Virus record (IMG/VR): IMGVR_UViG_3300009031_000368
Location: 64,001-128,000 of that record
Source: a virus
Taxonomy: Duplodnaviria > Caudoviricetes
Direction: 5' to 3' (one strand)
DNA: 64,000 nt
Program-made: the position numbers and the translations under genes
The notes under the pieces: generated by a model
What the model saw: the letters and a program-made list of their open reading frames with translations, nothing else
What the model was told of the DNA's origin: nothing
Databases searched by the model: none
Part shown: piece after piece, positions 2,246 to 64,000 of the stretch
How the letters are laid out: each line of letters opens with the position of its first letter
Position numbering within the stretch: the first letter of the stretch is position 1

Positions 2246-2666
2246 ACCTATCAGTTCTCTTTAACGTTCTTACGATTATTTTCTTACCTTGTGGTAACCT
2301 GCCTAAGTGTTGTCTGAATTCAGCGACAAGCGTATATCGTCCTTTGACAATCTTATTATAAGATACAAGGAAATCCATCTCCGGCTCTTTCCTTGCTATA
2401 AAGCGTCTTGATTCAATGCTGTTCAATTCATTGATCAAATCCACTACTGACTGCCGCTCAACACCCTTTCGGATATAAATGATATTCATACCGGCGATGA
2501 CGGCAACATCTTCAACGATTGGATTGTCTGCAATCAATTGCACCAGTATCCGCTTAAGTCGCCTTGCCTGGTTCATTATTTCAGACTCAATAACAAGATC
2601 ACGAACAGCCGTTAAACATTCTGTCAAATTCATATTCCACCTGTTCCATCTACAACGACATACCAT
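2217..2666 (-). CDS. Hypothetical protein, candidate internal head protein (likely start ATG 2633)
   Basis: N-terminus MNLTECLTAVRDLVIESE shares a motif with neighbouring genes. Confidence 0.55.
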   Translation of the reverse strand: MVCRCRWNRWNMNLTECLTAVRDLVIESEIMNQARRLKRILVQLIADNPIVEDVAVIAGMNIIYIRKGVERQSVVDLINELNSIESRRFIARKEPEMDFLVSYNKIVKGRYTLVAEFRQHLGRLPQGKKIIVRTLKRTDRFANGGTRKG

Positions 2667-2935
2667 CCATCATCAAGTTCTTGAATGCCGGTCGTTACTC
2701 CTTTAATGCTAAGACTACCATATATGTAATCGTCCAATCGCTCCGCCGTTCTTCTCGAATCGATCGGCCCAACCCTTATCAATTCAGACTTACGACTTAG
2801 ACCGATCGTCAATCCTCGAAGTTTTGACATCCTGGAAAGGATTCGATGCAATGAATCTATGTCGATAACTTGGTCTTCCAACAGGTAATCCTTCACGGCA
2901 TCTAGTTGCTCAAATAGCCTTGTATTGATCCTCAT
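2630..2935 (-). CDS. Hypothetical protein, candidate internal head protein
   Basis: N-terminus FEQLDAVKDYLLED; start/stop overlaps with neighbours. Confidence 0.55.
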   Translation of the reverse strand: MRINTRLFEQLDAVKDYLLEDQVIDIDSLHRILSRMSKLRGLTIGLSRKSELIRVGPIDSRRTAERLDDYIYGSLSIKGVTTGIQELDDGWYVVVDGTGGI

Positions 2936-3711
2936 TACGATATGTCATCATCGACAACGACGACCCAACTATCGCCATTATTCCATTCTTGAACTCCGGC
3001 ATTTACATACTTATGCTTACTAAGTATGTATTTCATAATTTGGTTTGCGCGTCTTTCACTGTCCATCCATCCAATGACGATGACGTTTAATTCATCATTA
3101 ATACTGATGTCCCAACTTCGTAGCAGCGGATCCTGACTAAGTTCATGTCGAAGTTCTATCAAGTCGTTTCGCCGATGCCGTGATGAAATTGAACTTGATT
3201 CCGTCTGCCGTGGTGGTTCAATAACCCAGTACAGTGGTCGCGGGCCGGTTGGTGTTATTTCTGGATCTTGCTCAACCTTTGCAAAACCGCTAATGACAAG
3301 GCTTCCAACAGGGAACCGCTTCAGTGCATTACCATCCTTTACCTGAATAGGCTCTCCAAGTGTGGACACCTTCAGCTTCTCACTATCGTCAAAATAGCCC
3401 TTAACCACATTGATGGTTTTTCGTTTGGCATCAATCCATGCCGGCTTTCCACCAGTAAGCGCCAACTGTTTGATGATATTCCGCGGTATCTGCGCGGCAC
3501 CTATGATACCTTCCGATAGGATCGATTCACCCATTCGGCGCTTTCTTGCCTGTCTGGCTTGTTTATGTTTTTCTCTAACGGCCGAAACGATACCATGTGA
3601 CGCGGATTGTTCTTTAGTCTTTTTCTTGAATGGATTCCACCCCTCTTCAAGGTCATCCATTAAGAATTGTTTTACTGCTTCGAGTTGCCTGTTTACCACA
3701 TCATCACCCAT
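2935..3711 (-). CDS. Hypothetical protein, candidate internal head protein
   Basis: N-terminus NRQLEAVKQFLMDDLEEG followed by a basic segment. Confidence 0.6.
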   Translation of the reverse strand: MGDDVVNRQLEAVKQFLMDDLEEGWNPFKKKTKEQSASHGIVSAVREKHKQARQARKRRMGESILSEGIIGAAQIPRNIIKQLALTGGKPAWIDAKRKTINVVKGYFDDSEKLKVSTLGEPIQVKDGNALKRFPVGSLVISGFAKVEQDPEITPTGPRPLYWVIEPPRQTESSSISSRHRRNDLIELRHELSQDPLLRSWDISINDELNVIVIGWMDSERRANQIMKYILSKHKYVNAGVQEWNNGDSWVVVVDDDIS

Positions 3712-3717
3712 CTGTTA

Positions 3718-4611
3718 TTAAAAGTCAAACTCATCGAATTCAATCGACTCAGCTCTGGCCAACTGTTTCGCGCGTCCACGTTTTCCAGCTGCCGATAACT
3801 TATTGTGCCGCGCGGCTGACTTATCGGCTTTATCCTTTGTATCTTGTGCGTAGCTCTTGACGTTTTTCATCGTTACATCGAATCGCTTTGAATCAATCTC
3901 ACCACCTAGCGCCTTATCGCCGCGAACGTAATCGGCCTTACTGGATGAACCATGCGTTACCCGATTGGTATGGTTAAAGCGTCCTTTGGTGCGTCCAGGT
4001 TCAACTGAAGGCTCTGAACGAAGCGCCTTTTGAGGATTTGTCTTACTGGATTGACCACGAAGCCCCTTAGCACCAAGCGGCTTATCGGTATTTCGCTTAA
4101 TGGGATTATCTTTACCCTTTTTACGGGCAGCTCGTCCGCCAGGCTCACTCATCAAAACCTTTTTACCCGACTTAAAATAACTCTGTTCCCTGCCAAACGC
4201 CCAACTTGTTGCACGGCTTGGCTCAGAAAACATACCGGCTTCGTCATGGAATGGATTCGCCTCGTCAAGCTCATCTTCATCATATTGTTCAGATTCATCA
4301 AGATTTGGATCGTCTACCTGAATAACCCATCCGCCTTTCGACATTGCATGTACCGATGTCTCAGCACCATCTAACTCTCGCTCAATCGCACGAGCCGTAT
4401 ACTCCGCACTTTTCTTGCTAACAAAGCCGCTAGCCATAATTGAACGACCTGAAATAACGGATTCTATATCTTTATCATCGGATTCCTCTTCAACAACTTC
4501 TTGAACATCATCAAGGAAATCCTGAAGCTCACGACTCACCGCCTCCTCAAGATCTTCATGTTCACTAAGCAGGAAATCCCGCACATCGGTCAACCTATCG
4601 ATAAAACTCAT
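3718..4611 (-). CDS. Hypothetical protein with acidic N-half and basic C-half, candidate internal head protein
   Basis: N-terminus FIDRLTDVRDFLLSE; LxEA sites (DLEEA, ELDEA); NPFHDEAGMF motif; K/R-rich tail. Confidence 0.6.
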   Translation of the reverse strand: MSFIDRLTDVRDFLLSEHEDLEEAVSRELQDFLDDVQEVVEEESDDKDIESVISGRSIMASGFVSKKSAEYTARAIERELDGAETSVHAMSKGGWVIQVDDPNLDESEQYDEDELDEANPFHDEAGMFSEPSRATSWAFGREQSYFKSGKKVLMSEPGGRAARKKGKDNPIKRNTDKPLGAKGLRGQSSKTNPQKALRSEPSVEPGRTKGRFNHTNRVTHGSSSKADYVRGDKALGGEIDSKRFDVTMKNVKSYAQDTKDKADKSAARHNKLSAAGKRGRAKQLARAESIEFDEFDF

Positions 4612-4628
4612 AACTCCTCCAAAACCTA

Positions 4629-6076: not shown

Positions 6077-6528
6077 ACGCGAAACTGTATCTTCTTTTGT
6101 TGAAGTGTCTTGTATCCCTTCGGCTCAACGGAACGTCGCCAAAGGTTAAACTCATCAAAATGTTCACCACATACACCTATTATCGATTCAGAACCGCCGA
6201 CCTTAAGTCCAAATTCTGCCTCAATGCCACATCTAAAACATGTCGTTGTTCTAAGTTGTGTCGTCAATGGACCTTCGTATTGTGGAAAATCCATACCGCC
6301 CATCGGGCCGCGACATTCATTGCCAGTTAGTCCGGCTTCGCATGTTGAATTTCCAGCATCAATGGAACGCCATAATTTAAGGCACATGCTGCATGTGTGG
6401 CTAAAACCTTCTGCCATCAATTGTTTTGGATCAGCCATCCAGTATACGTCCTTTAATAATAGATTTTGCCACGACCGGACACTTGCCGATTTCGCGCAAT
6501 CGATTGCGTGGCAAGATGCCGGATTCAA
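6073..6528 (-). CDS. Small Cys-rich putative Zn-binding protein (true start probably near 6438)
   Basis: CSMC, CFRC and CGEH motifs. Confidence 0.55.
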   Translation of the reverse strand: MNPASCHAIDCAKSASVRSWQNLLLKDVYWMADPKQLMAEGFSHTCSMCLKLWRSIDAGNSTCEAGLTGNECRGPMGGMDFPQYEGPLTTQLRTTTCFRCGIEAEFGLKVGGSESIIGVCGEHFDEFNLWRRSVEPKGYKTLQQKKIQFRV

Positions 6529-10779: not shown

Positions 10780-11562
10780 TTATACTCTACCACGAATCAA
10801 TGCAACAAGATCTGGTTTTGGAATCCGCACTTCGATTTCACTAAGCCGGATGCCGCGCAGTTCAGCTTCCTTGATCCATCGGCTCTTGCGCCAGTCGTCC
10901 ATATTGTCTGGGAATGGTGTAAATTGAGCTTGAGACGATTCAGAGAATCCAACAACTGGAACCTGTTCCGGCTCATGTATGAAGCCAGTCTTTGATTCAT
11001 TGGTAATGAATTGAACACTATTTGTTGAAGCCGTTGACTCGAATGTCGGGCCAGCCACAAGCGCGGCAACTTCGGCCGGGGACGCAATTGATTGCATATC
11101 TGGTTCACCGCCGATTGTGGCCATAACTGGTGCCGGCATTGAAACTGCTACCGACACTTGCTCGAATGCCTGTTGACCATCAACGTCTGGATTGCCGTCA
11201 ATATCCACCGCCGTATACTTCAAATTGAATATCGATGACTGACCGGTTGATTCGGCAAACTCGTTAGGGGTTTTCTGCACCGTTAACGCGGATCTTCCCG
11301 TTGACACGGTGACGGTTCTATTTCCGCCAACTACACGCTGTGGGACATCGGAAAGTTGAACCTGAACCATCTCACCTTTGCCGTTCTTTGTTAGCTTTAC
11401 CAGGAATCCACTCTTTACCGCTCTGTCCAGAGAACCATCTTCATCATTGCTTTCAACAATATCACTCTTATTGATGAATAGCTTTTCACGTTTTCCGTCA
11501 CGCTTAATGGTAATCCATGTTCCGTTACGCGGGCATTTGGAGCTTAACTTATAATAAAACAT
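10780..11562 (-). CDS. Hypothetical protein with a possible C-terminal helix-extension-helix (Rho-N/SAP-like) motif
   Basis: C-terminus WRKSRWIKEAELRGI...PKPDLVALI. Confidence 0.45.
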   Translation of the reverse strand: MFYYKLSSKCPRNGTWITIKRDGKREKLFINKSDIVESNDEDGSLDRAVKSGFLVKLTKNGKGEMVQVQLSDVPQRVVGGNRTVTVSTGRSALTVQKTPNEFAESTGQSSIFNLKYTAVDIDGNPDVDGQQAFEQVSVAVSMPAPVMATIGGEPDMQSIASPAEVAALVAGPTFESTASTNSVQFITNESKTGFIHEPEQVPVVGFSESSQAQFTPFPDNMDDWRKSRWIKEAELRGIRLSEIEVRIPKPDLVALIRGRV

Positions 11563-18639: not shown

Positions 18640-19503
18640 CTAACTATTGTTTGCAATCCTTTTGATAAACTCTCCACAAAAGTCTGCCGCATTAACGTGT
18701 CCGGCAATGCCATCATGCAATTTACACAGCTCTGATGTCTCGCATACCGTCGAATCAAGCTTGAGCTTTTGTGAAACCGTTTTAACCACATCTTTGCTAA
18801 AACTTGTTACACCATTAAACATATTGACGAATTCTTGTCTCGTCATCAAAATATCATCTGGAAGTTTGACATCATCTACCTGGATATCTTTTATGCCGTC
18901 GATGACGCCTTCCAGTCTTAACATTATATTATGCAAAGCAACAATGACGTTATCTCTAATTGTTTCATCAGATGATTCGTAATATTTTTGAAACCGCGCC
19001 TTAATGGCTCTATCACGCAAGCCGGATAGCGTTCCATATAGCGCCTTTCTCATTGGAACATTCTTTTCCTCATGAATCCTGACGAATTCTGCTTCAGACA
19101 TCAGTGTCCCAATTCTATTGGAAATCAATTCAGATGCTTCGGCATGGTAAGACTGAATGATGGGAAATAATTCGGTAAGCCCTTTACGGAACGAATCAAG
19201 ATCGCCGACAATCAAACGCTCAACCAGTCTTCTAGACTGTTCGATCAATACGATGGCTTCATCTATTTCGTCAAGCATTTCAAGGTTGAGTTCAAGCTCT
19301 TCGCCGATCGTTAAACCGTCGTATTGGAACTTATGGAAACTGCCATCAGCGTATAAGACTACGACATGGTCTTCATATAGTGAAAACAGTTGAGCCGTCT
19401 CACCAAAATTTCCAGTCACGCAATCAATTGCACGTTCTATCTTGTCCTGGTAACTGTTTTCAACAATCCGTTTTAGCGAATCCAACCTGATCGACTTGCC
19501 CAT
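18640..19503 (-). CDS. Hypothetical head-module protein
   Basis: 287-aa helical ORF directly downstream of the portal. Confidence 0.6.
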   Translation of the reverse strand: MGKSIRLDSLKRIVENSYQDKIERAIDCVTGNFGETAQLFSLYEDHVVVLYADGSFHKFQYDGLTIGEELELNLEMLDEIDEAIVLIEQSRRLVERLIVGDLDSFRKGLTELFPIIQSYHAEASELISNRIGTLMSEAEFVRIHEEKNVPMRKALYGTLSGLRDRAIKARFQKYYESSDETIRDNVIVALHNIMLRLEGVIDGIKDIQVDDVKLPDDILMTRQEFVNMFNGVTSFSKDVVKTVSQKLKLDSTVCETSELCKLHDGIAGHVNAADFCGEFIKRIANNS

Positions 19504-24216: not shown

Positions 24217-25095
24217 TCAGTAGTCGTCATCATTATCGGCAGACTGCTCTGAATCACTGTAATCAAGTGCGTCCGTGTATGATGAAGATAGAAGTTGTTC
24301 GTCGGTGGCATTTGAAGCAACCGCCGCAATCGCATCGATGGCATCTTCGCCATACACGACATCGACGCTGTTTCGCTTAAGGGCCAGGATCGTGATGCCA
24401 AAGTTCTCTTCAAGACTCTTCAACAAGTATGGTAATCCGTCCAAGTTATCGACACCGGCATTCAGGGCAAGGAAGTTGGTGCAGATCTGGTCAATCAAAT
24501 GTCCCGGCTTATCGGATTCTGCCATTTCGGCGGCTTTCTTTAAAGCCAATTCGACATTGTGAAGCTGCTCATCGGTTAGCTTGAAATTCTTACTGTTGAA
24601 CTTTTCACCTGTTGGAAGGTCGGCCGGATCAACATCGGCGTCAGGATCATCGGCCATCTTCTGGAGAGCACCACGAGCCAGTTCGAGAAGCTTTGGTGCC
24701 GATACCTGTTTGGCGGTTTCAACCCACTGGTCAACGTTATCTGGTGTAACGACGCCGATTAGATCCTTGGCCTTTGTCCAACCGATCGTCTTAACCTTAT
24801 CCATCACTTCCGGATTTCCCGCAAGCTTCACACCATAGTATGCCCACATGGAAATAAAATACTGTGCCTTACGCTTCTCAAAATCTAAATCGTTTTCCAC
24901 ATACTCGACAAAGTTTTCATACCCTAGCCTGGTGTAGAGCGCTTCCTGGTGAATGGTGTATAGCACTTCGGCCAGATCAAAGTTCACACTATCGATGCGC
25001 TTCCTGCAATCCCGCGCCTTTTCACCAAAATCATGTGCGCGGATATCCTTTTCATCCAAAACCTCTACCTGTTGATCAACGTTAAATTCATTCAT
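24217..25095 (-). CDS. Putative DNA-binding protein (DUF3102-like N-terminal helical/HTH region)
   Basis: LGYENFVEYVENDLDFEKRKAQYFISMW resembles DUF3102-type motifs; acidic tail. Confidence 0.5.
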   Translation of the reverse strand: MNEFNVDQQVEVLDEKDIRAHDFGEKARDCRKRIDSVNFDLAEVLYTIHQEALYTRLGYENFVEYVENDLDFEKRKAQYFISMWAYYGVKLAGNPEVMDKVKTIGWTKAKDLIGVVTPDNVDQWVETAKQVSAPKLLELARGALQKMADDPDADVDPADLPTGEKFNSKNFKLTDEQLHNVELALKKAAEMAESDKPGHLIDQICTNFLALNAGVDNLDGLPYLLKSLEENFGITILALKRNSVDVVYGEDAIDAIAAVASNATDEQLLSSSYTDALDYSDSEQSADNDDDY

Positions 25096-25121: not shown

Positions 25122-25394
25122 TTAAATAAAAACTACTTCTTTAATTCTAACTTCGGTAAGTTCTTTGCGCTTCATCAACTCGCCATAAACTTCGGCACGG
25201 CAACCTGCGGCCATATGGCTTCGGCAGATTTGTACCAAGGTCGGCCCATATGCGTTACAGCGAATTGCTGTAATAAATCCGCCATTACCCTCAACGACAA
25301 GCCTAAACGTCGCGCAGTCAGTTCCACTATTGGTTTCATCGAACAGCGGATCTTCAACCGTTCCAGAAACCATTACATGATTCATACCTCTCAT
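25122..25394 (-). CDS. Short SSB/PriB-like OB-fold protein lacking an acidic C-tail
   Basis: MNHVMVSGTV...CATFRLVV...IRCNAYG...GCRAEVYGEL pattern of bacterial SSB. Confidence 0.75.
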   Translation of the reverse strand: MRGMNHVMVSGTVEDPLFDETNSGTDCATFRLVVEGNGGFITAIRCNAYGPTLVQICRSHMAAGCRAEVYGELMKRKELTEVRIKEVVFI

Positions 25395-25465
25395 TCAAGT
25401 TACTCCGTATATATCACAAATATCAAAAGTTGTATCACTCATGCAATTAATTGCACCATTGATTC

Positions 25466-43485: not shown

Positions 43486-44725
43486 TCATGTATTGTGGTT
43501 TTACCCATCGGCTCATCCACTCAAGCGGCTCCGACAAAGCATACAGCTGACGGAATTCCTGTATATACTGATTGGCTGTTTCGTAACCGGTGACATACAG
43601 CGCATTCTCGAAAGACCGTGCCGCTGAATCGGTAAAGTTAAATGAACCGGTCCATACCGCGTATGGCACCAACACGTTGACGTTACCGAATCGTGATGGC
43701 ACATACTGCCTCTCATATCGGCAGAACACCATAAACTTATGGTGCATTCTTTCTGACGCCTGATTCTCACGGTCACAATTTCCCACACATCGAACCGGAT
43801 CCACGTTGGTTCCTTCACCTAACAGCAATCCAATATCGTTGTATCGGTTCAACCCGCAATGCAGCTTACCGTATGATGCCTGTAACCGCCTAACGAAATC
43901 TGAACCGTTATCGTCCGGCCGGAGGAAATCTTCCTTTTGAACCAGTATCGCGCAATCTTTTTCCGACAATGCATCCAGTATACGCTTACTTGTCATCCAA
44001 GCCACACATCCGACAACGGCATCTGCTTCATGGATGTAGGCAGTGAGCGCCGTCGATAGATTCCTGAAATGGACACTGACACTTGCGTCAATATTCATCC
44101 TTGTATAATCATGTTGCGCGAATCCACCGGAACCTGTTGGTAGTTTTACATCGTTTAGATTTTCAATCCGCTTTACCGCTGTCGATTGTGCAATTGATTG
44201 CGCGTTATCTGAAACAACCTTTGCTTCTACTTCTGGATTACCAACTGGTGGTCCATCAACCACTACCTTCTTTTTCGTAGGTGTCTTTGCGCGCTGCCAC
44301 TGACGGTACATCTTGCCAACATCAAGCGCACCATCTTTTTCTTTCGCGATCCATGCTGTGGCGCGAGATTCACCAATAAGAAGTGACATCACAGAACTGT
44401 AAAAGAAATCATCGAACGGTGGCTCTGGTAAAAAGTGTTGTTCCGCTGGATGTCCTGTAGTTAGCTTGACGCCATCATTGTAAAACTTCTCGCGGATCTT
44501 AACCGCGTACTGAAGTTGTCCATCCGTAGCTGTTGGAAACTCCGGCCAGCCACGCTTAACCTGTTCAACGTAAAGCTTACCGACATATTCCTCGTGACAC
44601 GATGGACATTCCTTCAATTTCCATTCAGCAATTCTGTCTTCGTATCCTGGCGATAGCGTGAACTCCTTTTGGCTAAAATGTCCACAACTCATCTGAAGTT
44701 GAAATCGCTTTTTACCATATCCCAT
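43478..44725 (-). CDS. Zn-ribbon protein fused to a PLD-family (HKD) nuclease domain
   Basis: N-terminal SCGH...CPSC; C-terminal RMHHKFMVF...VWTGSFNFT...FENAL. Confidence 0.8.
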   Translation of the reverse strand: MGYGKKRFQLQMSCGHFSQKEFTLSPGYEDRIAEWKLKECPSCHEEYVGKLYVEQVKRGWPEFPTATDGQLQYAVKIREKFYNDGVKLTTGHPAEQHFLPEPPFDDFFYSSVMSLLIGESRATAWIAKEKDGALDVGKMYRQWQRAKTPTKKKVVVDGPPVGNPEVEAKVVSDNAQSIAQSTAVKRIENLNDVKLPTGSGGFAQHDYTRMNIDASVSVHFRNLSTALTAYIHEADAVVGCVAWMTSKRILDALSEKDCAILVQKEDFLRPDDNGSDFVRRLQASYGKLHCGLNRYNDIGLLLGEGTNVDPVRCVGNCDRENQASERMHHKFMVFCRYERQYVPSRFGNVNVLVPYAVWTGSFNFTDSAARSFENALYVTGYETANQYIQEFRQLYALSEPLEWMSRWVKPQYMIG

Positions 44726-45939: not shown

Positions 45940-46884
45940 TTACATGTTTAAGGGCATCATCGAAATCTGGCAACCTGACTCGTGCGCTACTTTTGCAGCC
46001 ATGCTGGCTCGATAACCTGGCCCAAGTCGTTGCTTGATTACCTTCACCTTGTACATCAATCTGTCATACAATCCAGAGCTATGCCAAGCTGTTTCATATT
46101 GGGTTTTATCACAAAGCTCATTCAGTATGTCTATATATGCTTCTTCTTCAGTTATTAAATGGTCCGTAAGCTGCAATAGGTCATACAGGCTGATGGTTCT
46201 ACCATTGCCAGCCTCAACACCGATCAAGACATCGTTACTACGTGGTTTAGCCGAAACAATAACGGTATATGTAACCAATCCATGGTTTCCTTTAATGATG
46301 GCAGGTTTAAATACACTATGATGTACTAGTGTATCAGCGCTTGACGTCATAACATCAACACCAACGTTATGACGTTCAATCAATTCATGTATGCAATCAA
46401 TTGCGCCGTCATCTGGAACATACTTCATGTCAATTTTATCTTCAGGTTCGATCAGATATGAAACATCGTACGGCTTTGATGTTGTTGGGAATACATCGGC
46501 CGGGAAGATCATAGTATTGGTTTTAAACAATATCAGCCGGGTTATCCACCTGACATCTGCCTCAAACGTGATGGTCCTGTCCGACATATGTAGTTTAATG
46601 GTTGATGCTGTAAACTGTTTCGGCAACATACCATCTAATACCGTTAACGTGATGGCATGAAAGACATGCGTCTCGGCCCGCATGATTTTAACGATGGTGA
46701 CATTGACACGGTGTAACGTTGTAGGCTTATCTTTATAAACATCCCTTGATGTAACGGCACAACGGACATTCTCCCATAACCGCACATCCGCTTCACCGCC
46801 AAACAATCTGCAAAGCTCTGTCGCACTGTTCTGAATCATAAGATTTGTCTCCATATAAATTATGGTCAACCTGACACCACTCAA
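45940..46884 (-). CDS. Hypothetical protein
   Basis: 314-aa ORF. Confidence 0.6.
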   Translation of the reverse strand: MSGVRLTIIYMETNLMIQNSATELCRLFGGEADVRLWENVRCAVTSRDVYKDKPTTLHRVNVTIVKIMRAETHVFHAITLTVLDGMLPKQFTASTIKLHMSDRTITFEADVRWITRLILFKTNTMIFPADVFPTTSKPYDVSYLIEPEDKIDMKYVPDDGAIDCIHELIERHNVGVDVMTSSADTLVHHSVFKPAIIKGNHGLVTYTVIVSAKPRSNDVLIGVEAGNGRTISLYDLLQLTDHLITEEEAYIDILNELCDKTQYETAWHSSGLYDRLMYKVKVIKQRLGPGYRASMAAKVAHESGCQISMMPLNM

Positions 46885-47903: not shown

Positions 47904-49040
47904 TTACTTTATATTGTTGTTGACATCATTATGACATTTATCAATAGATAGGCCGTTTTCGGCCAGCACTAGCTTTAATTTATCGTCGTCAAGATCTCCT
48001 GGATCTTCAGATGGCTTATTGATTAAGCGAATCGTTTTACCGCCTAGCTGTATAAACCGTATCCCAACATTGAATTCCATTTCCTCGCCAGCCGGATCGC
48101 TATCGCCCCAAACAACCAACTCATCGAACCATGTTCTAAGCTTTGACAGCTGAACATCCCCGACATTTGTTCCCAACGATGCAACCGGATTTATCGCACC
48201 ATTTTGCCAAAGCTTAAGGACATCGAAGCCACCTTCCACCAGAATGCCTCTCCGTATTGAATGATTGATCTTATGCTCACCATAAAGGATGAGATTGCGC
48301 CAACCGCGACTATCGACATTATGGCTATGGAGATACTTCGGCGGGATGGACCATCTGCAATCAATTGCACTACATTTTCCGTTTACGTTTTCATGATGAC
48401 GGGGGCATTGTGGATTTGGATCATAAAGCCGGCCCGTGATACCGACAAGTTCACCTTTGTAATTTCTTGCGGGAAACAACAACCGCTTCATTTTTCGATC
48501 ATGACCAAGTTCCCACTCCCGGCACACATCCAGAGTCAATCCTCGATCTAATGCATAATTGGGTACCGATGATCGATATGGTGCGTAAACCGATTCATCC
48601 AACACGCTGTACGTTATATCGTCCAGGCTAAATAGCGTGGTACGTTTACGTGTACGGCTAGATGTATTCTTTAACTGTTTGAGTGTGCCGCGTCCAGGTT
48701 GATCGAAACCGCTTTGACGAATCAGATTCAATCGATCCAACATGCCGTCAGGCGAATGACTGAATTCCTCATCTCGTAACAACAAGAGCATAAATATGCC
48801 CATCGGTGTCTTTGTCGTAAACTGAAACCTCAACACCGTATCGGTAAATGGTTCCTTCAGCTTACACGCCAGACAACTTGACATTGGAGTGTCGCCGATC
48901 AATACGGCAAACGACGGATGCCGGTCGTAGCCATCTCGATGTTTTGCTTCATTAGGGCAACTTGAAGTTACTTTATTTTGATGTTGTTTTATTTCACGAC
49001 ACCCCATTACCGATAGGGCGTGTGCGATAACGTCAATCAC
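47904..49040 (-). CDS. DNA primase (DnaG-like, Zn-binding domain plus TOPRIM)
   Basis: SCPNEAKH...CLAC, YALDRG, LLFPARN, ILVEGGFDV, ASLGT, WGDSDPAG. Confidence 0.9.
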   Translation of the reverse strand: MIDVIAHALSVMGCREIKQHQNKVTSSCPNEAKHRDGYDRHPSFAVLIGDTPMSSCLACKLKEPFTDTVLRFQFTTKTPMGIFMLLLLRDEEFSHSPDGMLDRLNLIRQSGFDQPGRGTLKQLKNTSSRTRKRTTLFSLDDITYSVLDESVYAPYRSSVPNYALDRGLTLDVCREWELGHDRKMKRLLFPARNYKGELVGITGRLYDPNPQCPRHHENVNGKCSAIDCRWSIPPKYLHSHNVDSRGWRNLILYGEHKINHSIRRGILVEGGFDVLKLWQNGAINPVASLGTNVGDVQLSKLRTWFDELVVWGDSDPAGEEMEFNVGIRFIQLGGKTIRLINKPSEDPGDLDDDKLKLVLAENGLSIDKCHNDVNNNIK

Positions 49041-53590: not shown

Positions 53591-54452
53591 ATCCTGGAAT
53601 CAACTTGAACAACTGCGCAATTGATTGCGCGTTCCCCTTTAAGTTATCACGAGTCACATTATTGTCAATTACAATTTTAGTTTTTGAGAATCTATACCGT
53701 TCGGCATAAGTATCCCATACTTGTTCAACCGCATTCTGTGTATTCTTGCCCCATACACCATCAATATCGCCTACCTTAAAACCCATCCTGGCGCAATGAG
53801 ATTGGACTGCCTTATTGACAGTTTTGTCATTCCCTACGATTGGTCCAAAAAGTTCAAAATAGTCATATAGTCCTAACCAGATGTCTCTGAACGCCGGTCC
53901 AGGATCAAGTTTCCTGCCTGGGCTGATATGCTCATGACCAATGATTGATTCAATCCCGATACTGTGACGAGACGCTATATCGTAGGCCAACAGGAATGCC
54001 GACGCGGCTTGGACGTATGGGAACTTCGCCCAACTATATGTTGATGTCTCTGGTCGATGATCTAACGGCTTAACTGGTTCAAGGTTTGTCGTTTCTTTCA
54101 TCAGCATGGTGGTACCGGTGCCAGACGTCAATGTGTAATTTCTATATAGACCAGATTCATCAGCCGCGCCATAGCCGAAGTTAACGATCTCTATACCGAT
54201 GGAAAAGCTATTGACATAACTGGTTCCATTCCATGTCGAGTCACCGGCATGCCAGGCTCTATCTGATTCATTTACGGTTTGTATGATGGTGCCATCTGTG
54301 TCGATGATGTAATGCGAAGATGCCTTATTGGCATTTAGTCCATTGATAGCAGATTCCAACGTATTTCCGGCCGTATAATGGAACACGATACAACTGACCG
54401 GTGCCGATCTACCTTTGGAATAGTTCTTTAACTGAACGGTTTGATATTTCAT
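53571..54452 (-). CDS. N-acetylmuramoyl-L-alanine amidase (Amidase_2/AmpD-like endolysin) with a C-terminal PG-binding-like segment
   Basis: IVFHYTAG, ASSHYII, RAWHAG, SIGIEIVN, GHEHISPGRKLDPG, GDIDGVWGKNT. Confidence 0.92.
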   Translation of the reverse strand: MKYQTVQLKNYSKGRSAPVSCIVFHYTAGNTLESAINGLNANKASSHYIIDTDGTIIQTVNESDRAWHAGDSTWNGTSYVNSFSIGIEIVNFGYGAADESGLYRNYTLTSGTGTTMLMKETTNLEPVKPLDHRPETSTYSWAKFPYVQAASAFLLAYDIASRHSIGIESIIGHEHISPGRKLDPGPAFRDIWLGLYDYFELFGPIVGNDKTVNKAVQSHCARMGFKVGDIDGVWGKNTQNAVEQVWDTYAERYRFSKTKIVIDNNVTRDNLKGNAQSIAQLFKLIPGFDNKTR

Positions 54453-54794: not shown

Positions 54795-56045
54795 CTAGAG
54801 GCTCCATGGATTAGATTCATCAGCCGATTGACCGCGTGGAGGAATGATGGCTGCGCGCTCACTGTAATCCATTCTGTCAAAATCCCAATTCAATGTTAGG
54901 TCTTGGGCGTGAGCAGCACGCCGAACCATTTTAGGTATTACACGAAGAACCTTATCTGCCTTCATGTCCGGTGTTTGTTCGAGTTCTACAACATTATGCG
55001 CATCCCATCCTGTCTGTTTTGATAGCGCCGCTTTTCTTTCGTCATTGAGTTGGCTCATACATACATGTGGAATCATGGTGTCTTTTGCCTGTTCCTTGGC
55101 CCATTTTGAGAATATCGGCATATTCTCCATTCTGGTAAGACCTGGAATCATTTGAATATCATAACATGAATCAAGTATAACAACCTTTGGTTTTAAATCT
55201 TTTGTCGCTGCTGAAATTCGTTTAGGATTCATGTCATCAACTTCATCCAGTATGTCGAAGCCTCTATAATTTCCAGACTTTAGTTCTATTATCTTTTGAT
55301 TCAACAGATCTTCTGCAAAATAACCTAACTCTCCAGATACGAGATTTCGATACGATATCCCGGCATCTATTGTAAGGAAACGTTCCTGTATTTCAACTCG
55401 TTTCATTTCTGGGCTAACAAACAATACTTCGTTTCCGCACAACCACGCATGTCGGGCCAGAATAATTGCCAAAAAAGTTTTACCCGTCTTCGGGGAGGCA
55501 AGAAAGTATGTCAACGTCCCAGGCAATAATCCCATGCACATCTTATTGAGAGTCGGCCATGGCAATTCAATACCTAACTCGCCGCGCTTTGTGGCTTCAT
55601 AGTTTTCAACTACTTCCTCCATACCTTCAAACATTGACTTGACCTGGTATGCCTTTTCGGTCGAAACCTCCTTCATCTTCATGTGAAGTTCATCAACCAG
55701 ATCTCTAACCTTTTCTGGATTCTTTTCCTGAAGCGCAAGCAGGATCGGCTCCATGGATGATTCTTGCATCTCGTATAGGTGTCGGCGCAACAGGTGAGTA
55801 ACGATGGCCTCAATGGAAGCACCAATTGGATTAAACTCTCGATTAAATTCATGACTGACGACATCTAATCCGGGAAGTTGCCGGTATGTGTCGACGTATT
55901 GTGTGATGTAATTCCATGCCAGCGTGCTGATGCCCTTCAACAGTTTAGAATTCACACCGGTGCGTAATGCGTATCCGTAGCTATCTGGACCACCATCCAG
56001 TATGGAACGGATCAATCCAATATCGTATGATTCAAATTCCATCAC
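54795..56045 (-). CDS. Replicative DnaB-like helicase
   Basis: ASPKTGKT, FVSPEM, VILDSCY, CMSQLN. Confidence 0.88.
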   Translation of the reverse strand: MMEFESYDIGLIRSILDGGPDSYGYALRTGVNSKLLKGISTLAWNYITQYVDTYRQLPGLDVVSHEFNREFNPIGASIEAIVTHLLRRHLYEMQESSMEPILLALQEKNPEKVRDLVDELHMKMKEVSTEKAYQVKSMFEGMEEVVENYEATKRGELGIELPWPTLNKMCMGLLPGTLTYFLASPKTGKTFLAIILARHAWLCGNEVLFVSPEMKRVEIQERFLTIDAGISYRNLVSGELGYFAEDLLNQKIIELKSGNYRGFDILDEVDDMNPKRISAATKDLKPKVVILDSCYDIQMIPGLTRMENMPIFSKWAKEQAKDTMIPHVCMSQLNDERKAALSKQTGWDAHNVVELEQTPDMKADKVLRVIPKMVRRAAHAQDLTLNWDFDRMDYSERAAIIPPRGQSADESNPWSL

Positions 56046-56695
56046 GGCTTCCTTTTAAAGATATTGGTGATTTGTCGGGCTGATTCTTCTCTTCTGTCTG
56101 GTCCAACAACTTCAACCCTTACAAAACATTCCTTAGCGGTTGATGTTGAGGAAGTCCCGAAACATGTTTCAAATTCATCCGGCGAAATCTGGCTTGTCAT
56201 CCAGGTGATTTTCATATCGGCAGAGCGCTGTTTGAGGATCATTTTCAGGAATTCCTCACCGGTTCCCTTAGTATCCTTCACTCCCTTGCCGACATCATCA
56301 ATCAATAGGACATCTACCGACATTGCACGTTGCCACATGGTTTCGTATTCATCGAATGACACCTTGTTGATGACGTAATCCTTTATCATCAAGTATTCGA
56401 GATACATTGCCGTGATGCCACGCTGCCTGAGTGATTTCAGAGCCACAATCGCTGCACTCGTTTTACCGTTGCCGTTCTTCCCCCAACAATACATTCCCAC
56501 TCCATTCCTGAACATCACTTCAAGATTTTTGAAGTATGTATCTATCACGTCGCGGAATGAAAGTTCTGTCTGCTCTCCATTTACCTTAACCTTAAACGTG
56601 CAATCAATTGCGCTATACTGTGCTGTTCTGAAACGTTTTGGTATCCTCATTCGTTCAAGATCATCATCGGTCAATTTACGCTTCTCCATCACCAA
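56042..56695 (-). CDS. DnaC/IstB-like AAA+ helicase loader
   Basis: IPKRFRTA, GKNGNGKT, VLLIDDVG, WMTSQ. Confidence 0.85.
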   Translation of the reverse strand: MVMEKRKLTDDDLERMRIPKRFRTAQYSAIDCTFKVKVNGEQTELSFRDVIDTYFKNLEVMFRNGVGMYCWGKNGNGKTSAAIVALKSLRQRGITAMYLEYLMIKDYVINKVSFDEYETMWQRAMSVDVLLIDDVGKGVKDTKGTGEEFLKMILKQRSADMKITWMTSQISPDEFETCFGTSSTSTAKECFVRVEVVGPDRREESARQITNIFKRKP

Positions 56696-58517: not shown

Positions 58518-60473
58518 TTAGATCGATTCCATGAACTGTCTGAACTTATCCCAATTGTTGGTATATTGAAATGGCGGGAGAGACTTCAACAGCAATTGAC
58601 CATACGGCTTATTGACGATACGGTTATCGAGTAATACGAACGTTCCCTTATCGGTGATGCTTCTAATCAGTCGCCCGGCCGCTTGTGCCAACACGATACC
58701 GGTTAACGGCATGATGAAGTTATTCCATCCGCTCATCCCCTTCTTTTCAATCAATTGCTGGATGGCGGCTAATACTGGATCATCTGGTACCGGGAATGGA
58801 AGCTTATCCATAATTACTGTCTGTAGCGCGTCACCGGCCACATCTACGCCTTCAAAAAAGCTCTTGGTGGCAAACAGTACCGAATTGGTGTCCTGCTTAA
58901 ATTCCTCCAGTACCAGCTGCCGTGACTTATTTTCCTGTAACATCAAATTTCGGCCAGATTGCCTGATACGGTCGGCCAACAACCTTGAGCAATTATTGAG
59001 AGATTTGAATGATGTGAACAAACACAGTACGCCACCTTTCGTGCAATCAATTGCGCGCATCATCAATTCGGCCGTTTCGCTATCATCAAAATCCTTTGAC
59101 CTATCGTTTCGGTCTGGGATGAACAGCAATCCGTTATTCTTCAAATCAAAAGGACTCTTAAGCTTTAGAGTCTTGATATCCTTTGGCGCACCGACCTGGG
59201 ATGCAATATAGTTAAAGTTGCCAAGTGTCGTCATGGTGGCACTTGTCAACACGGTCGCATGCTTATCGTCGAATAGCTTACTGCCTATCCAGTCCGATAC
59301 ATCTATGGGAGAAAACTTAACCGTCAGCTTCCATTGCTTAGCTGCCGTGGCGAAACCATCATTTTCACTCCATACGACAAAATCATCAGTAGATCCTGCA
59401 CCGATTCGTTCAACTGCCTTTCGGAATTCTGACAAACTTGTTGCCAACATTTCCAAATTGGCAGAGTCTCGTTCTGCCGTCGTATCGCTTTTTGCCTTGA
59501 GCCGCACTTCTCTCAAAAGTTCATCGATGCGCTTCAGTGCAACCGTAATGTTTAACTCGCCTGGCTGGATCCTTCGCTTTTCCTTAAAGTCCTTCATCTG
59601 AGCTTGAATGAGCTGTAACAGATCTCTAATCGATGTCTGGAATTTTTCAATAACATCCTGTTCTATGTATTTGTTGAGTCGACCAGCAAGCCACTTTGAT
59701 TTACTTTCCGACACTTCGCCGGATTGAAACGCTCTGGCAATTTCGGTAATCTGATGCGCTTCATCACAGATCAATACATCGAATGGAGGCAGCACTTCAC
59801 CATCTAACTTGAAGTCTGTCATCAATAGGTGATAGTTGACGACAATGACTTGTGCTCTAGCCAGACCTTGCCTGGCCCGGTTGGCATAACATTCACCGAC
59901 AAGTGGACACTTGGCCTTCAGGCATTCATTGCCTGATACCGATACGTTGCTCCATTCCTGTTTGGGATTAAACGTCAGCTCCGACTTATCGCCGGTTTCA
60001 GTACTTTCCGCCCAACCGATCAGTTTTTGTTTTATCTCACGGGATTCATCAGACGCATATAGCTGGTTTTCATTCGTGTAATCGTCATACCTGTGCCGGC
60101 AGAGGAAGTTAGATCGGCCTTTTACAAGTGCAAACTCGAAATCCCATGGCAGCATGGCCTTCAACATTGGAAGGTCTTTGTAGTATAGCTGCTCCTGTAA
60201 CGCAATGTTGGCCGTGGCTACAATTACCGTGCCACCGGTACGTGCCGCATGCTCGATACCAGGTATCAAATATGACAGGCTCTTACCTACGCCGCACGGT
60301 CCTTCAATAAGGATATGCTGAGTACCATCAACATGATTTTCAATGCCATCAATGACATCACAAACCGCTTTAGCCATGACGACTTGTGATTCCCTACGCG
60401 GAAAACCGTAATCCTCCAGGATTCCTGCTTCGCCAAATGTTCGCTTCATGCCGGTCAGCTGTGCCTGATTCAT
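58518..60473 (-). CDS. DinG/YoaA-family helicase with an Fe-S cluster
   Basis: GPCGVGKSLSYL, LVKGRSNFLC, C..AKCP...C, ICDEAH, LTSAT, FFEGVDV, QAAGRLIRS. Confidence 0.93.
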   Translation of the reverse strand: MNQAQLTGMKRTFGEAGILEDYGFPRRESQVVMAKAVCDVIDGIENHVDGTQHILIEGPCGVGKSLSYLIPGIEHAARTGGTVIVATANIALQEQLYYKDLPMLKAMLPWDFEFALVKGRSNFLCRHRYDDYTNENQLYASDESREIKQKLIGWAESTETGDKSELTFNPKQEWSNVSVSGNECLKAKCPLVGECYANRARQGLARAQVIVVNYHLLMTDFKLDGEVLPPFDVLICDEAHQITEIARAFQSGEVSESKSKWLAGRLNKYIEQDVIEKFQTSIRDLLQLIQAQMKDFKEKRRIQPGELNITVALKRIDELLREVRLKAKSDTTAERDSANLEMLATSLSEFRKAVERIGAGSTDDFVVWSENDGFATAAKQWKLTVKFSPIDVSDWIGSKLFDDKHATVLTSATMTTLGNFNYIASQVGAPKDIKTLKLKSPFDLKNNGLLFIPDRNDRSKDFDDSETAELMMRAIDCTKGGVLCLFTSFKSLNNCSRLLADRIRQSGRNLMLQENKSRQLVLEEFKQDTNSVLFATKSFFEGVDVAGDALQTVIMDKLPFPVPDDPVLAAIQQLIEKKGMSGWNNFIMPLTGIVLAQAAGRLIRSITDKGTFVLLDNRIVNKPYGQLLLKSLPPFQYTNNWDKFRQFMESI

Positions 60474-60801: not shown

Positions 60802-60814
60802 TATTCATGTTACC

Positions 60815-61207: not shown

Positions 61208-63058
61208 TCATTCAAATTGAGAACTTATCGCCTCATACAATGCCTGTGACAGTTGTTCCCAACTATACCCATTTTCCATTCCGGACTTAATGAAATCATT
61301 TATATCTTTTACCATCACACCACCAGTATAGCGGTAAAGATATTCCCAATCAATAAATCTTGCGCAAATGTTTCTTTTTGCTAGATTTTCAAAGCAACGT
61401 TGCGCACTTGTTTGACCAACACCATTATTATCGACATGATAAGCTATCAATACATACTGTACGCCAGATTGTGCCAACAGTTCGGACATACTGTCGCCGG
61501 CCATAGCTGCTGAATCAATCGCACCAACGACATCTGTCCCGTCAAATATCGTTTCAGTTATCCATGTGTCCATTGCACCTTCGGTAAGGATGACTGAGTT
61601 CTGTGTTAATTTCGGCGTTCCATAATGGAGCGGGAGTTTATTGTGAGTCTTCTTCAGTCCCTTAACCGATTGATACTTTCCGGTCGTTTCATCGGCTTGC
61701 TCGAATCGATGCAAGATGTTACGCACTGTTCCATTTTCATCGAACACTGGGAATCCTAGACAATTTCCGAATGATAGCATCTTTCCATACCGCCACCTCC
61801 TGACTATCTGGTTGGAATAGTCCGGCGCATTACGATCCGCGTATACGATTCTACCATCACCAACATTCTGATGGATGACTTCTTCGGGAATTCCTCGCTG
61901 TTCCAGAAATTCTGCAACCTGCTCGGTTTTATAATCGGTCAGTTGTTGCACGGTTTCAGTAAGATCAGTATCTGGAATGACGGAATCACTGACCGATTCA
62001 ATCGTAGATGAAACTTTTCCAGTAACCGATTTCGTAATAGTCTGGAGTGTAGCAGTCACGTCTCGCGCAATTGATTGCAGTGACAATAGGCTTGAATCCC
62101 AGCCATCAAATGTCTGCGCGGCAAGTTCAACCGCATAATCGCTTATACGGCCACTGTAATGCTTCATGAATTCATATAGCGTCATACCGATAGCTGCAGC
62201 AAAGTCTTTGAACGCACCACGTTGACCACTTTTTATATGATACCATGCATTGTTTTTGAGCGAGATGTTTCGAGAACCGTGAACGCTTGGTTCAAATGCC
62301 GTTCCGGCCCATGGTGCAAACATTAATGCGCCACGTTCAAACCTGTAGTCAGGACTATTGTCGATTATTGATTGAACGGTTACCACAAGCATATCTTCCC
62401 GCGAATATGCCCAATCAGTTTTATTTGCAACTGCAACTACTGGCCGGTCATCAACTTCGCGGTTATCTGTACAGGCATTTGATTTATCACCATATTGTTC
62501 TGACAAATATGGAACAGTAACATTTATATCCTTTACCGCTTCAGCAATATCAAACACATGAGTGAGCCGATGGTGGATAATATTAGCCCGTTCAGCCTTA
62601 TCGTAATCTAACGCATATTCCAAATGACGTCTGTAGCGTGGTGCCTTTCCCGTGCTAACCATTATGGCATTTACACATCCAAGTTTGATTAGCTTATCCA
62701 TGGCAACCTTTATGGCATGTTTCTTAACACCAAGTTTTTCTGCCATATTGTCTTGCTTCATCTTTACTTTTGAATATTTCGTCCCTGGCCGGTAATCATC
62801 GTCCAAGCTATTCAATAATCTGAATAACGAATAGTGCAAGGTAAGTAGGCCAGATTCGTAATCGGCACGGATTGATGCCTGTACCGCGCTACGACGGTTT
62901 TCCTGCTCAATCATCCACCGTGTACTATGTGGACGCAAAATAATGGAGCTTTTCTTCCATTCGTTATTGACATTCATTGTTTTACCAGCTAAAATTGATG
63001 TTGAACTTTGATTAGGTAACATTTGTGTTTCCTTTATGGCCGTAGAAATTGCGGCCAT
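61208..63058 (-). CDS. wHTH plus primase-like (TOPRIM) fusion protein, possible replication initiator
   Basis: KQDNMAEKLGVKKHAIKVAMDKLIKLG (wHTH), EFLEQRGI, ILTEGAMD, IAYHVDNNGVG. Confidence 0.65.
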   Translation of the reverse strand: MAAISTAIKETQMLPNQSSTSILAGKTMNVNNEWKKSSIILRPHSTRWMIEQENRRSAVQASIRADYESGLLTLHYSLFRLLNSLDDDYRPGTKYSKVKMKQDNMAEKLGVKKHAIKVAMDKLIKLGCVNAIMVSTGKAPRYRRHLEYALDYDKAERANIIHHRLTHVFDIAEAVKDINVTVPYLSEQYGDKSNACTDNREVDDRPVVAVANKTDWAYSREDMLVVTVQSIIDNSPDYRFERGALMFAPWAGTAFEPSVHGSRNISLKNNAWYHIKSGQRGAFKDFAAAIGMTLYEFMKHYSGRISDYAVELAAQTFDGWDSSLLSLQSIARDVTATLQTITKSVTGKVSSTIESVSDSVIPDTDLTETVQQLTDYKTEQVAEFLEQRGIPEEVIHQNVGDGRIVYADRNAPDYSNQIVRRWRYGKMLSFGNCLGFPVFDENGTVRNILHRFEQADETTGKYQSVKGLKKTHNKLPLHYGTPKLTQNSVILTEGAMDTWITETIFDGTDVVGAIDSAAMAGDSMSELLAQSGVQYVLIAYHVDNNGVGQTSAQRCFENLAKRNICARFIDWEYLYRYTGGVMVKDINDFIKSGMENGYSWEQLSQALYEAISSQFE

Positions 63059-63081
63059 TTTTATTTGTTCAATTGTTATTC

Positions 63082-63330
63082 TTACTCTACCACTTCAAAC
63101 GTCTTACGATTATCAATCATATTAATTCTGATCCGACCCGAATTCTTCAGATCATTTATTCCATCATAAATATGGCATCTGGTAACTCCGATGAGCCTTG
63201 CCAAATCTGTAACTCTGAATTGATTGTTTCCTGCCCGGATGAATTCCACCAACGCTCTTCTTATCGTAATATCCCTGCCCTTATACTCTTCAACGATACG
63301 TTCAACCTCTGGTGTTACTACTATACGCAT
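63082..63330 (-). CDS. Small HTH DNA-binding protein
   Basis: VTDLARLIGVTRCHIYDGINDLKNSG. Confidence 0.75.
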   Translation of the reverse strand: MRIVVTPEVERIVEEYKGRDITIRRALVEFIRAGNNQFRVTDLARLIGVTRCHIYDGINDLKNSGRIRINMIDNRKTFEVVE

Positions 63331-63356
63331 AACATGCTCCTAACTTCTTACAATAG

Positions 63357-63386
63357 ATTATATCTAAACTATACATATTGTGTCAA
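63357..63386 (-). promoter_or_regulatory. Sigma70-like promoter for the HTH/replication operon
   Basis: TTGACA (63386-63381), 18 nt, TATAAT (63362-63357), then an AGGAG RBS. Confidence 0.65.
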
Positions 63387-64000
63387 CTGCTACAAACGAA
63401 ATACTTTAACAGGCGATCATATACACCACCTGAAAGATCCTCTCTCTCCTCTCTCCGAGAGAAAGAGAGAGTCTGATCGTTTATGATCACTAAGCGATAA
63501 ATCAACAATAGCACCATTGACGGTAAATGTGAATGTATTTTTGTAATGGAAGGAAAACTTCTACGATGAAGAATAAAAGGATGAGGTGAGTTGACGTGTT
63601 AATCTAACTCTGATTCAATGATTCGGCGGGAGGTTTGTCTGGCACGTTTCTTTGCACCAATCAGGCAGGGATTGCGTTGATTTCTAGGACAACTGCTATG
63701 ACTGAAGATCGGGCGCTTTTGATACTTGGAACCGTAATCGTTCCTGTTACGGTAGATATTGTCTCGTTCTAATCCGTATGGGCGCATGATGGATCCAATA
63801 TATGATGTTGTGGACAACGACACCCACATGGTGCAATTGATTGCCAACCGGCTAACCTATTTACAACGGTTGGAGGCAAAGTTTTGACGTTACACTCCCA
63901 GAAGATTTCGGCCGGACATCCTTGCCGGTTACATCGGACCAGATAGTAAATATCGTTGATTTGAACTTCATTGAGTCCGAACATCTTTTTACCGTAACGT

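Follow-up and report, generated by a model that had tools for sequence, protein, structure and literature searches.

The stretch of DNA considered here (hereafter the window, 64,000 bases) comprises bases 64001-128000 of the IMG/VR virus contig IMGVR_UViG_3300009031_000368, a 231,714-bp jumbo phage contig that is 76% complete and has a GC content of 44%. The window carries 18 exact copies of a short palindrome, counted here with the pattern GCAATYRATTGC, and it encodes a 292-residue protein, P0001, that we propose as the reader of these sites. The sites are listed below in window coordinates, with the tetrapeptide that each encodes when located in a coding sequence.

2530..2541, GCAATCAATTGC, coding sequence, QLIA on the minus strand
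6496..6507, GCAATCGATTGC (CG centre), coding sequence, RNRL
11084..11095, GCAATTGATTGC, coding sequence, QSIA
19420..19431, GCAATCAATTGC, coding sequence, AIDC
25443..25454, TGCAATTAATTGCA, operator-like site, intergenic, the sole perfect (TA-centre) palindrome of the contig, 11 nt downstream of the -10 box of the promoter of the operon containing P0001
26769..26780, GCAATCAATTGC, coding sequence, QLIA
30907..30918, GCAATCGATTGC, coding sequence of a 130-residue module protein, QSIA
32053..32064, GCAATCAATTGC, coding sequence, QLIA
35916..35927, GCAATTGATTGC, coding sequence of a 176-residue protein adjoining RecA, QSIA
38651..38662, GCAATCAATTGC, intergenic, immediately 3' of a TTGACA word
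44190..44201, GCAATTGATTGC, coding sequence, QSIA
46393..46404, GCAATCAATTGC, coding sequence, AIDC
48357..48368, GCAATCAATTGC, primase-like coding sequence, AIDC
53617..53628, GCAATTGATTGC, coding sequence, QSIA
56600..56611, GCAATCAATTGC, coding sequence, AIDC
59043..59054, GCAATCAATTGC, helicase coding sequence, AIDC
62067..62078, GCAATTGATTGC, coding sequence, QSIA
63833..63844, GCAATTGATTGC, short open reading frame (ORF), QSIA

In 100 dinucleotide-preserving shuffles of the window, the pattern appeared 0.10 times on average and once at most. The centres are CA in nine sites, TG in six, CG in two and TA in one, all 18 sites are preceded by a pyrimidine and 16 are followed by a purine, and the GC content of the window is 0.44. 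A preliminary description of the window had given the same sites, centres and flanks and had put the GC content at about 44%. It had also located 15 copies in coding sequences. Its counts for AIDC (5), QLIA (3) and RNRL (1) stand, while QSIA is encoded seven times instead of six, bringing the total to 16 and leaving the copies at 25443 and 38651 as the intergenic ones. Likewise, the single 8.3-kb gap that it reported is present, but the other gaps range from 1.1 to 6.0 kb rather than to 5.5 kb, with about one site per 4 kb.

Over the whole contig, the pattern is found 58 times and its reversed control is never found. This word is by far the commonest 12-mer of the contig, with 53 copies carrying a CA/TG centre where a third-order Markov model predicts 0.16. 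No site of this type in the contig has a purine-pyrimidine (RY), RR or YY centre, and the sequence logo reads YGCAAT-CA-ATTGCR(C), corresponding to a 14-bp site YGCAAT-YR-ATTGCR. The flanks outside these 12-14 bp carry no information in the logo, and therefore the palindrome is not part of a longer repeat or mobile element. The spacing of the sites has a coefficient of variation of 0.70, an evenness reached by randomly placed sites in 0.24% of simulations (tail 0.0024), and the smallest gap is 514 bp compared with a simulated median minimum of 49 bp. This more-even-than-random spacing is seen in most of the relatives described below as well. The largest site-free stretch of the contig, at 16.0-33.7 kb, lies outside the window. 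Read on the sense strand, the centre is CA in 25 cases and TG in 28 (p=0.78), showing no orientation bias with respect to gene sense or genome strand, and a polar signal (Chi, KOPS or stoperator-like) was rejected on these grounds.

The position of most sites within genes allows selection on the DNA to be separated from selection on the protein. Using a simple ORF call, under which 93% of the contig is coding, 48 of the 58 sites fall in coding sequences, in all three frames and in both orientations relative to the gene. About 84% of the sites are thus intragenic and ~16% intergenic, compared with ~6-8% of non-coding DNA. The 48 copies compare with 0.06 when the codon order is shuffled within genes and with 2.95 (maximum 7) when synonymous codons are shuffled and every protein is kept. 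The enrichment survives these codon- and protein-aware null models, which indicates selection at the DNA level and agrees with the earlier proposal that the DNA and not the peptide is selected. The reciprocal view is given by the tetrapeptides. QSIA occurs 17 times in the contig (0.74 expected), QLIA 15 times (0.86) and AIDC 10 times (0.39), and the motif encodes 17 of 17, 13 of 15 and 9 of 10 of these, respectively. This shows that the motif has altered protein sequences and that the selection was strong enough to rewrite them.

The motif is not confined to this contig. A 15-mer scan of IMG/VR retrieved other contigs with several copies, and in ten of them, complete ~94-kb genomes included, whole-record counts range from 6 to 47. 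These contigs have 49-61% GC, yet they hold the same AT-rich word. The terminase groups the IMG/VR holders with cultured siphophages: Stenotrophomonas phages DLP5, DLP3 and Summit, Vibrio SIO-2-like phages, Rhodobacter phage RcZahn and Rhizobium phage TM16. In 13 further genomes (48-61% GC, five hosts), the commonest 12-mer belongs to the family TGCAAY-NN-RTTGCA. The cultured holders are siphophages of 80-100 kb that infect Stenotrophomonas, Vibrio, Rhodobacter, Aeromonas and Rhizobium, and the family also ranks first in dozens of metagenomic contigs of 35-64% GC. The words counted in individual phages are as follows.

DLP5: top word TGCAATCAATTGCA, 27 copies
PG28 (MT735630.2): TGCAATTAACTGCA, 19 copies, and TGCAATTAATTGCA, 8 copies
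RcZahn: TGCAATCAACTGCA, 5 copies, TGCAATCAATTGCA, 5 copies, and TGCAATTAATTGCA, 3 copies
Aeromonas phage HJ05: TTGCAACCRGTTGCAA, 16 copies
TM16: GTGCAACATATTGCAC, 9 copies

A general trait of jumbo phages was rejected as an account of the motif, as the huge phages with the nearest capsid, LR756511 (595 kb) and LR756508 (484 kb), contain one copy and none, respectively. A 20-kb megablast against GenBank phages returned no relative of the contig, and a scan for close capsid-protein relatives returned none either. We found no mention of the motif in a phage context in the literature searched, where exact-sequence searches for its variants led to unrelated primers only, and the paper on DLP3 does not mention these repeats.

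The DLP5 and DLP3 genomes (82% nucleotide identity) allow the sites to be compared one by one. Of the DLP5 sites, 17 could be mapped, and each of these has its orthologue in DLP3. Their arms (12 positions per site) differ at 1 of 204 positions, against ~37 expected at the background divergence, whereas the centres switch among pyrimidine-purine (YR) steps (TG to CG, CA to TG and TA to CA). At the level of sequence comparison, this shows the arms to be under purifying selection. In contrast, neither the site positions nor the exact word are conserved between the contig studied here and its nearest jumbo relative, L183 (GCA_902730535.1, 305.9 kb), whose P0001 homologue is 67% identical. The top word of L183 is the asymmetric TGCAATCAAATGCA, found at 837, 11816 and 18485, non-orthologous positions, and it may reflect a recent change of specificity. 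Therefore, the conservation of positions in relatives, suggested beforehand as a check, holds between the two Stenotrophomonas phages and is lost with respect to L183, indicating that the array is selected and not particular places. A compositional or codon-usage artefact, or a trace left by a selfish miniature repeat, has to be considered a priori, and nothing beyond that speaks for it. The dinucleotide-, codon- and protein-preserving shuffles all fail to reproduce the motif, just 12-14 bp are conserved between random flanks, and the sites of DLP3 and DLP5 are orthologous and under purifying selection, so that the probability of such an origin is practically nil.

Homologues of P0001 are also found on ~96-kb contigs of three bacterial assemblies and on one 309-kb contig of a metagenome-assembled genome, and the motif family is the top word in all four. 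In the Paracoccus sp. MKU1 assembly (5.4 Mb), 34 of 34 copies of TGCAACSSGTTGCA are on a 96-kb phage-like contig (contig C206 of L271/G011, 96,368 bp), which encodes the P0001 homologue, and none is present in the other ~5.3 Mb. The presence of a whole phage contig in the assembly of an isolate suggests plasmid-like or pseudolysogenic carriage. The word is thus exclusive to the phage in this assembly, the single host genome that could be tested, and a host-chromosome motif was rejected for it. Its presence on the phage contig alone speaks against explanations based on a host nucleoid protein or on a signal of the uptake type. The occurrence of the motif in a host genome had been put forward as a further check, and its absence fits a phage-encoded reader. 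The centre of TGCAACSSGTTGCA is CC/GG, showing that the rule of YR centres is not universal.

A candidate reader was sought by comparing all ORFs of the contig with the motif-bearing genomes using BLASTP. About nine families are common to the contig and the siphophages: the large terminase subunit (TerL), RecA, a superfamily 2 (SF2) helicase, DnaB, a Toprim primase, a 524-residue protein, two small RecA-flanking proteins and P0001. Apart from TerL, these are replisome and recombination genes. A homologue of P0001 is present in every motif-bearing genome that covers the region, and tblastn with P0001 matches exactly the motif-bearing group of phages. The gene is the first of three candidates named in the preliminary description, and neither of the other two (63082..63330 and 61208..63058) is matched in the related phages. 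Among the homologues are DLP05_067 of DLP5 and QWS69833.1 of PG28, and the family comprises 4,024 clusters (50% identity) at E<=0.001 and 885 at E<=1e-30. Conversely, 80 IMG/VR loci were picked solely for encoding a P0001 homologue. The motif family ranks first or nearly so among the 12-mers of most of them, and further arm variants appear. One of these loci, L238 (IMGVR_UViG_3300025572_000001, 92 kb), displays 28 copies of GCAATTAATTGC in 20.5 kb, one per ~730 bp. The features of the window that matter for P0001 and its co-inherited module are the following.

24217..25095, minus strand, P0001, 292 residues, proposed reader, phrog_17202 (function unassigned), no Pfam match
25122..25394, minus strand, gene of 90 residues with an oligonucleotide-binding fold like that of single-stranded DNA-binding protein (SSB), first of the P0001 operon
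25466..25494, minus strand, sigma-70-like promoter of the SSB-like/P0001 operon, TTGACA-17-TATCAT, 11 of 12 consensus positions
25517..26044, minus strand, RusA Holliday-junction resolvase, directly upstream, in the place held by RuvC in the siphophages
34592..35839, minus strand, RecA/UvsX-like recombinase, in the module co-inherited with P0001
49173..50642, plus strand, SF2 (ResIII) helicase, in the co-inherited module
54795..56045, minus strand, DnaB-like helicase, common to the motif-bearing siphophages

Two further ORFs of the window were noted. The product of the first (189 residues, 51888-52457, plus strand), which adjoins the SF2 helicase, matches PF00227 with 24.4 bits against a cut-off of 22.4 and represents a phage-encoded proteasome or HslV-like protease subunit. 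The second (1108 residues, 13475-16801, minus strand) resembles T4-type prohead proteases (phrog_207) at residues 483-639 only, and its remainder could be an intein or a fusion.

The site TGCAATTAATTGCA starts 11 nt past the -10 box and overlaps the start of the SSB-like/P0001 operon, which is the position of an operator. A site upstream of the homologue is a recurrent feature. It is found at 54-350 bp in 10 of 11 genomes and, in a larger set, within 400 bp of the start of the homologue's ORF in 25 of 59 loci, against 14.6% expected from the site density, with a sharp peak at -50 to -115.

The AlphaFold model of P0001 (alignment of 119 sequences) has a mean predicted local distance difference test score (pLDDT) of 83.5, with values >90 over residues 11-210. 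Two models were compared with known structures and gave the same structural neighbours, listed here with their VIA-align Z scores.

Spo0J (1vz0): Z 8.7-9.0, root-mean-square deviation 2.8-2.9 over 107 residues, helix-turn-helix (HTH) part only (chain residues 98-208)
ParB DNA-binding domain with parS (6s6h): Z 8.3-8.6
KorB DNA-binding domain (1r71 / 8qa8): Z 5.5-6.0
SopB: Z 4.6
P1 ParB: Z 3.9, first model only
VirB: Z 3.6, first model only

Residues 12-150 are therefore modelled as a DNA-binding fold of the ParB/KorB HTH type, the match being a moderate one. In and after the predicted recognition helix, the family has the invariant residues R75-K76-A77-x-Y79 and G105-W106-x-K108. The nearest sequence family is DUF3102 (PF11300). 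P0001 is the sole ORF of the contig matched by its hidden Markov model (HMM), at bases 88745-88927 of the contig, although with 17.6 bits against a cut-off of 24.4 (E 5.7e-4), and the fold neighbours of P0001 in the AlphaFold database are DUF3102 proteins. Towards the C-terminus, residues 170-212 display a conserved beta-alpha-alpha pattern (TFKL-x-DQ..(helix)..T..D.VALE.IC) that could represent a dimerization element of the ribbon-helix-helix type. Its structural neighbours are weak (NikA-like and antitoxin clusters, TM score 0.46-0.49) and it has no HMM match. Modelled as two copies, P0001 reaches an ipSAE interface score of 0.62, compared with 0.00 for the best of three controls. Of 30 proteins whose solved structures are pairs of one chain, 20 attained this mark, as did 1 of the 23 solved as single chains. 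The modelled interface comprises residues 16-57 and 164-212, and P0001 is accordingly predicted to be a homodimer.

The arms of the palindrome vary across lineages (AAT, AAC, AGT and ACT types). A methionine follows RKA in the AAC and ACT types, a covariation between recognition helix and arm that is suggestive only.

In several lineages, the sites are linked to promoters. They are located 8-10 nt upstream of a TTGAC(A/G) -35 box in 9 of 27 cases in PG28, 9 of 27 in genome G004, 4 of 19 in G006 and 4 of 47 in G002, where fewer than about one per genome would be expected. PG28, G004 and G006 each have a promoter class of the form TGCAAT..AYTGCA, 8-10 nt, TTGAC(A/G), 17 nt, TAnnAT, with 4-9 members per genome. 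The promoter of the P0001 homologue itself belongs to the site-coupled class in G004. This placement shows a link to transcription in these four genomes, where the homologue would have to act on a promoter class. Intergenic sites make up 30-50% of the total in the siphophage relatives and are often 1-12 nt past the preceding stop codon. The coupling is absent from DLP5, from G001 and from the contig studied here (0 of 58 sites), and a general promoter element was rejected for the latter, in which one site is at a promoter. The contig has ~35 strong promoters of the sigma-70 type that follow the consensus AAAww-TCTTGACA-N17-(TG)CTATAtTG (for example, at 17178, 23042, 34391 and 160675 of the contig), about half of them clustered at 8.3-36 kb among small ORFs on mixed strands. 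The site-free gap at 16.0-33.7 kb falls inside this cluster.

The genomic context of P0001 raises the idea that the sites are loading or initiation points of recombination-dependent replication, at which P0001 would recruit SSB, the DnaB or SF2 helicases, RecA or a nuclease, for instance by way of its acidic C-terminal tail. Variants of this idea are dispersed origins, recombination hot spots or a palindromic, protein-read counterpart of Chi that shields the phage DNA from nucleases of the phage itself. The gene is always part of a replication and recombination module (SSB, resolvase, RecA, helicases). In the siphophages, the order is SF2 helicase, RecA, Cas4-like nuclease, RuvC and then the P0001 homologue, which closes the module, and in the window it is RusA, the 90-residue SSB-like gene and then P0001, the same SSB-P0001 pair being present in L183 (306 kb). 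P0001 ends in an acidic run with a terminal tyrosine (...SADNDDDY, window 24217-24260), like the partner-binding tips of SSB, while the SSB-like neighbour lacks an acidic tail. Weak fold similarity to DnaA domain IV was also found (Z 4.3-4.5), and the even spacing and orientation independence of the sites would fit. Nevertheless, the acidic tail is confined to the jumbo clade and not conserved in the siphophage homologues, the promoter-proximal placement in several lineages and the operator-like site point to transcription, and we know of no phage that uses about 60 origins. Overall, a role of the sites in replication or recombination is the main rival of the reading favoured below but seems unlikely.

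The module of L183 includes a gene for a Dam-like methyltransferase, and this genome has inteins in TerL and in the portal protein. The methyltransferase gene would favour a palindrome that serves as the target of an enzyme, such as a site-specific nickase, a modification or methylation system or a signal for restriction evasion, and T5 as well as some Pseudomonas phages are known to carry localized nicks at conserved motifs. However, for a nickase or methylase target there is no reason why ~60 evenly spaced sites of 14 bp should be positively selected despite their cost to proteins, nicking both strands of a palindrome would sever the genome, and the operator position would be left unaccounted for. 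We consider this explanation very unlikely.

The favoured interpretation is that the palindromes are a phage-specific array of sites for P0001, a dimeric and autoregulated protein with a ParB fold, and we regard it as probable, although far from assured. The earlier suggestion of a dimeric phage protein as reader is supported by the co-occurrence, the upstream site, the ParB/KorB fold and the predicted dimer, and the physical binding of P0001 to the palindromes is likely. Autoregulation has a reasonably good chance of being correct. A scaffold or silencing role for the intragenic sites, drawn from the analogies discussed below, is conceivable but falls somewhat short of an even chance.

Several observations weigh against this interpretation. 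The fold match is moderate (Z <9 for an all-helical domain; Foldseek probability 0.99 but E 0.31, range 0.3-1.6), Pfam assigns neither P0001 nor the homologues in DLP5 and PG28 to a family, and a sequence-profile search of the PDB was not significant. The homologue in G001 is only weakly detected (E 0.008). Canonical partition or lysogeny is not supported in this contig, as ParB_N (PF02195) has no match at E<=1 (control genomes do match), a ParA-type ATPase (AAA_31, PF13614) has none in the 76%-complete genome and no tyrosine integrase was found in its 232 kb. A purely regulatory role also fits the contig poorly, given the lack of -35 coupling and the single promoter site. The interpretation does not account for the predominance of the asymmetric CA centre, seen in 53 of 58 sites, over the perfect palindromes with TA or CG. 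Finally, co-occurrence alone does not single out P0001, since the RecA-flanking proteins of 130 and 176 residues and the helicases co-occur too. On this basis, the reader could be one of these two module proteins, a MerR-like regulator or a conserved host protein, P0001 being merely a regulated gene. Co-occurrence points equally to any of the roughly nine shared families, and the siphophages in addition encode both ParB_N-domain proteins and a MerR-type regulator. However, the contig lacks a ParB_N match, and the MerR-like regulator located beside the DLP5 helicase was rejected as reader for want of a counterpart there. A host protein is difficult to reconcile with hosts that span alpha- and gamma-proteobacteria, arms that differ between phages and a tested host devoid of copies. 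Indeed, P0001 stands alone among the shared proteins in having a DNA-binding fold, a dimer predicted by modelling and a site at the promoter of its own gene, and another reader is quite unlikely.

If P0001 reads the array, each monomer would recognize one TGCAAT arm, and the flexible YR step at the centre suggests that the DNA may be kinked or bent there. With the operator site overlapping the start of transcription of the SSB-like/P0001 operon, P0001 would probably repress its own synthesis. The other ~57 sites would be kept by selection at an approximately even spacing of 2-6 kb, in either orientation and mostly inside genes, at a cost in amino acids. P0001 could then assemble along the whole phage chromosome on an array exclusive to the phage, forming a KorB-like or stoperator-like nucleoprotein scaffold that would silence or organize the phage DNA and mark it as "self," the early region with its strong promoters (the 16.0-33.7 kb gap) being left free of sites. 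More tentatively, and with doubt prevailing, an evenly spaced array of high-affinity palindromes, read by a ParB-fold dimer without CTPase, might let the replication, recombination or nuclease machinery, or silencing in a carrier state, tell phage from host DNA. It is similarly doubtful, as part of this self-marking idea, that the protein and its sites form a pair that co-evolves (arms AAT, AAC and AGT) and moves between siphophages and jumbo myophages with the recombination module.

The closest parallel is KorB of the IncP plasmid RK2 with its 12 OB operators (TTTAGCSGCTAAA), which likewise combines a 13-14-bp palindrome per ~4-5 kb of a mobile replicon with a dimeric ParB-type HTH reader. 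Some KorB sites are also just upstream of -35 boxes and others are distant from promoters, and the reader controls its own gene, as proposed here. In contrast to KorB, P0001 lacks a ParB_N/CTPase domain, has no ParA/IncC partner that we could find and shows no significant sequence similarity, while the phage sites are mostly intragenic and 5-10 times more numerous per replicon. The systems ParB/Spo0J-parS and Noc-NBS provide the best structural match (residues 12-150, Z 8.3-9.0), with palindromes of 14-16 bp, a dimeric reader and, for Noc, many dispersed sites. However, P0001 lacks the CTP-binding N-terminal domain, and therefore clamp loading and sliding as in ParB/Noc are not expected. In addition, its sites are restricted to the phage instead of the host chromosome and are ~100 times denser.

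Among phages, the stoperators of Cluster A mycobacteriophages, bound by gp71 in L5 (PMC9283540), and the unexplained 20-22-bp oriented repeats of T1 and Stevie (PMC4319613) also present 20-35 copies of a 13-22-bp site over the genome, including inside transcription units, and in L5 one phage protein controls the early promoter as well. In the siphophage relatives, intergenic sites are enriched. In contrast, those other phage sites lack symmetry, follow the direction of transcription and are recognized by a monomer, whereas the sites described here are palindromic and non-polar, with a predicted dimer as reader, and lie in coding sequences for the most part in our contig, in which neither an integrase nor other temperate machinery was seen. 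Other words over-represented in coding sequences through selection at the DNA level are matS/MatP, the SlmA sites (SBS), Chi, KOPS, uptake sequences and HIP1, but these belong to host chromosomes, and Chi, KOPS and uptake sequences are polar or asymmetric, unlike this non-polar and phage-exclusive word. DUF3102 is itself without known function. By their defining features, the system is not a member of the ParB/KorB/Noc, stoperator or host-site families.

These results pair a large protein family that has no Pfam model with a precise DNA word whose arms vary by lineage, amounting to a specificity code. They also suggest that a ParB-type DNA-binding domain could be used without the CTPase clamp and with dozens of sites per genome. 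The system can be tested in cultured phages, namely DLP5 and DLP3 of Stenotrophomonas, SIO-2-like vibriophages such as PG28, and RcZahn of Rhodobacter, and the motif offers a simple marker with which metagenomes and bacterial assemblies can be screened for this group. One of its members, DLP5, is a temperate phage that persists as a phagemid (PMC5834331). Silencing or scaffolding of the genome by the array, if it occurs, would account for the plasmid-like or pseudolysogenic carriage reported for this group of phages and would extend the principle of KorB and the stoperators to jumbo phages. The self-marking idea, if true, would represent a widespread strategy, not described before, by which a virus labels its chromosome as its own.

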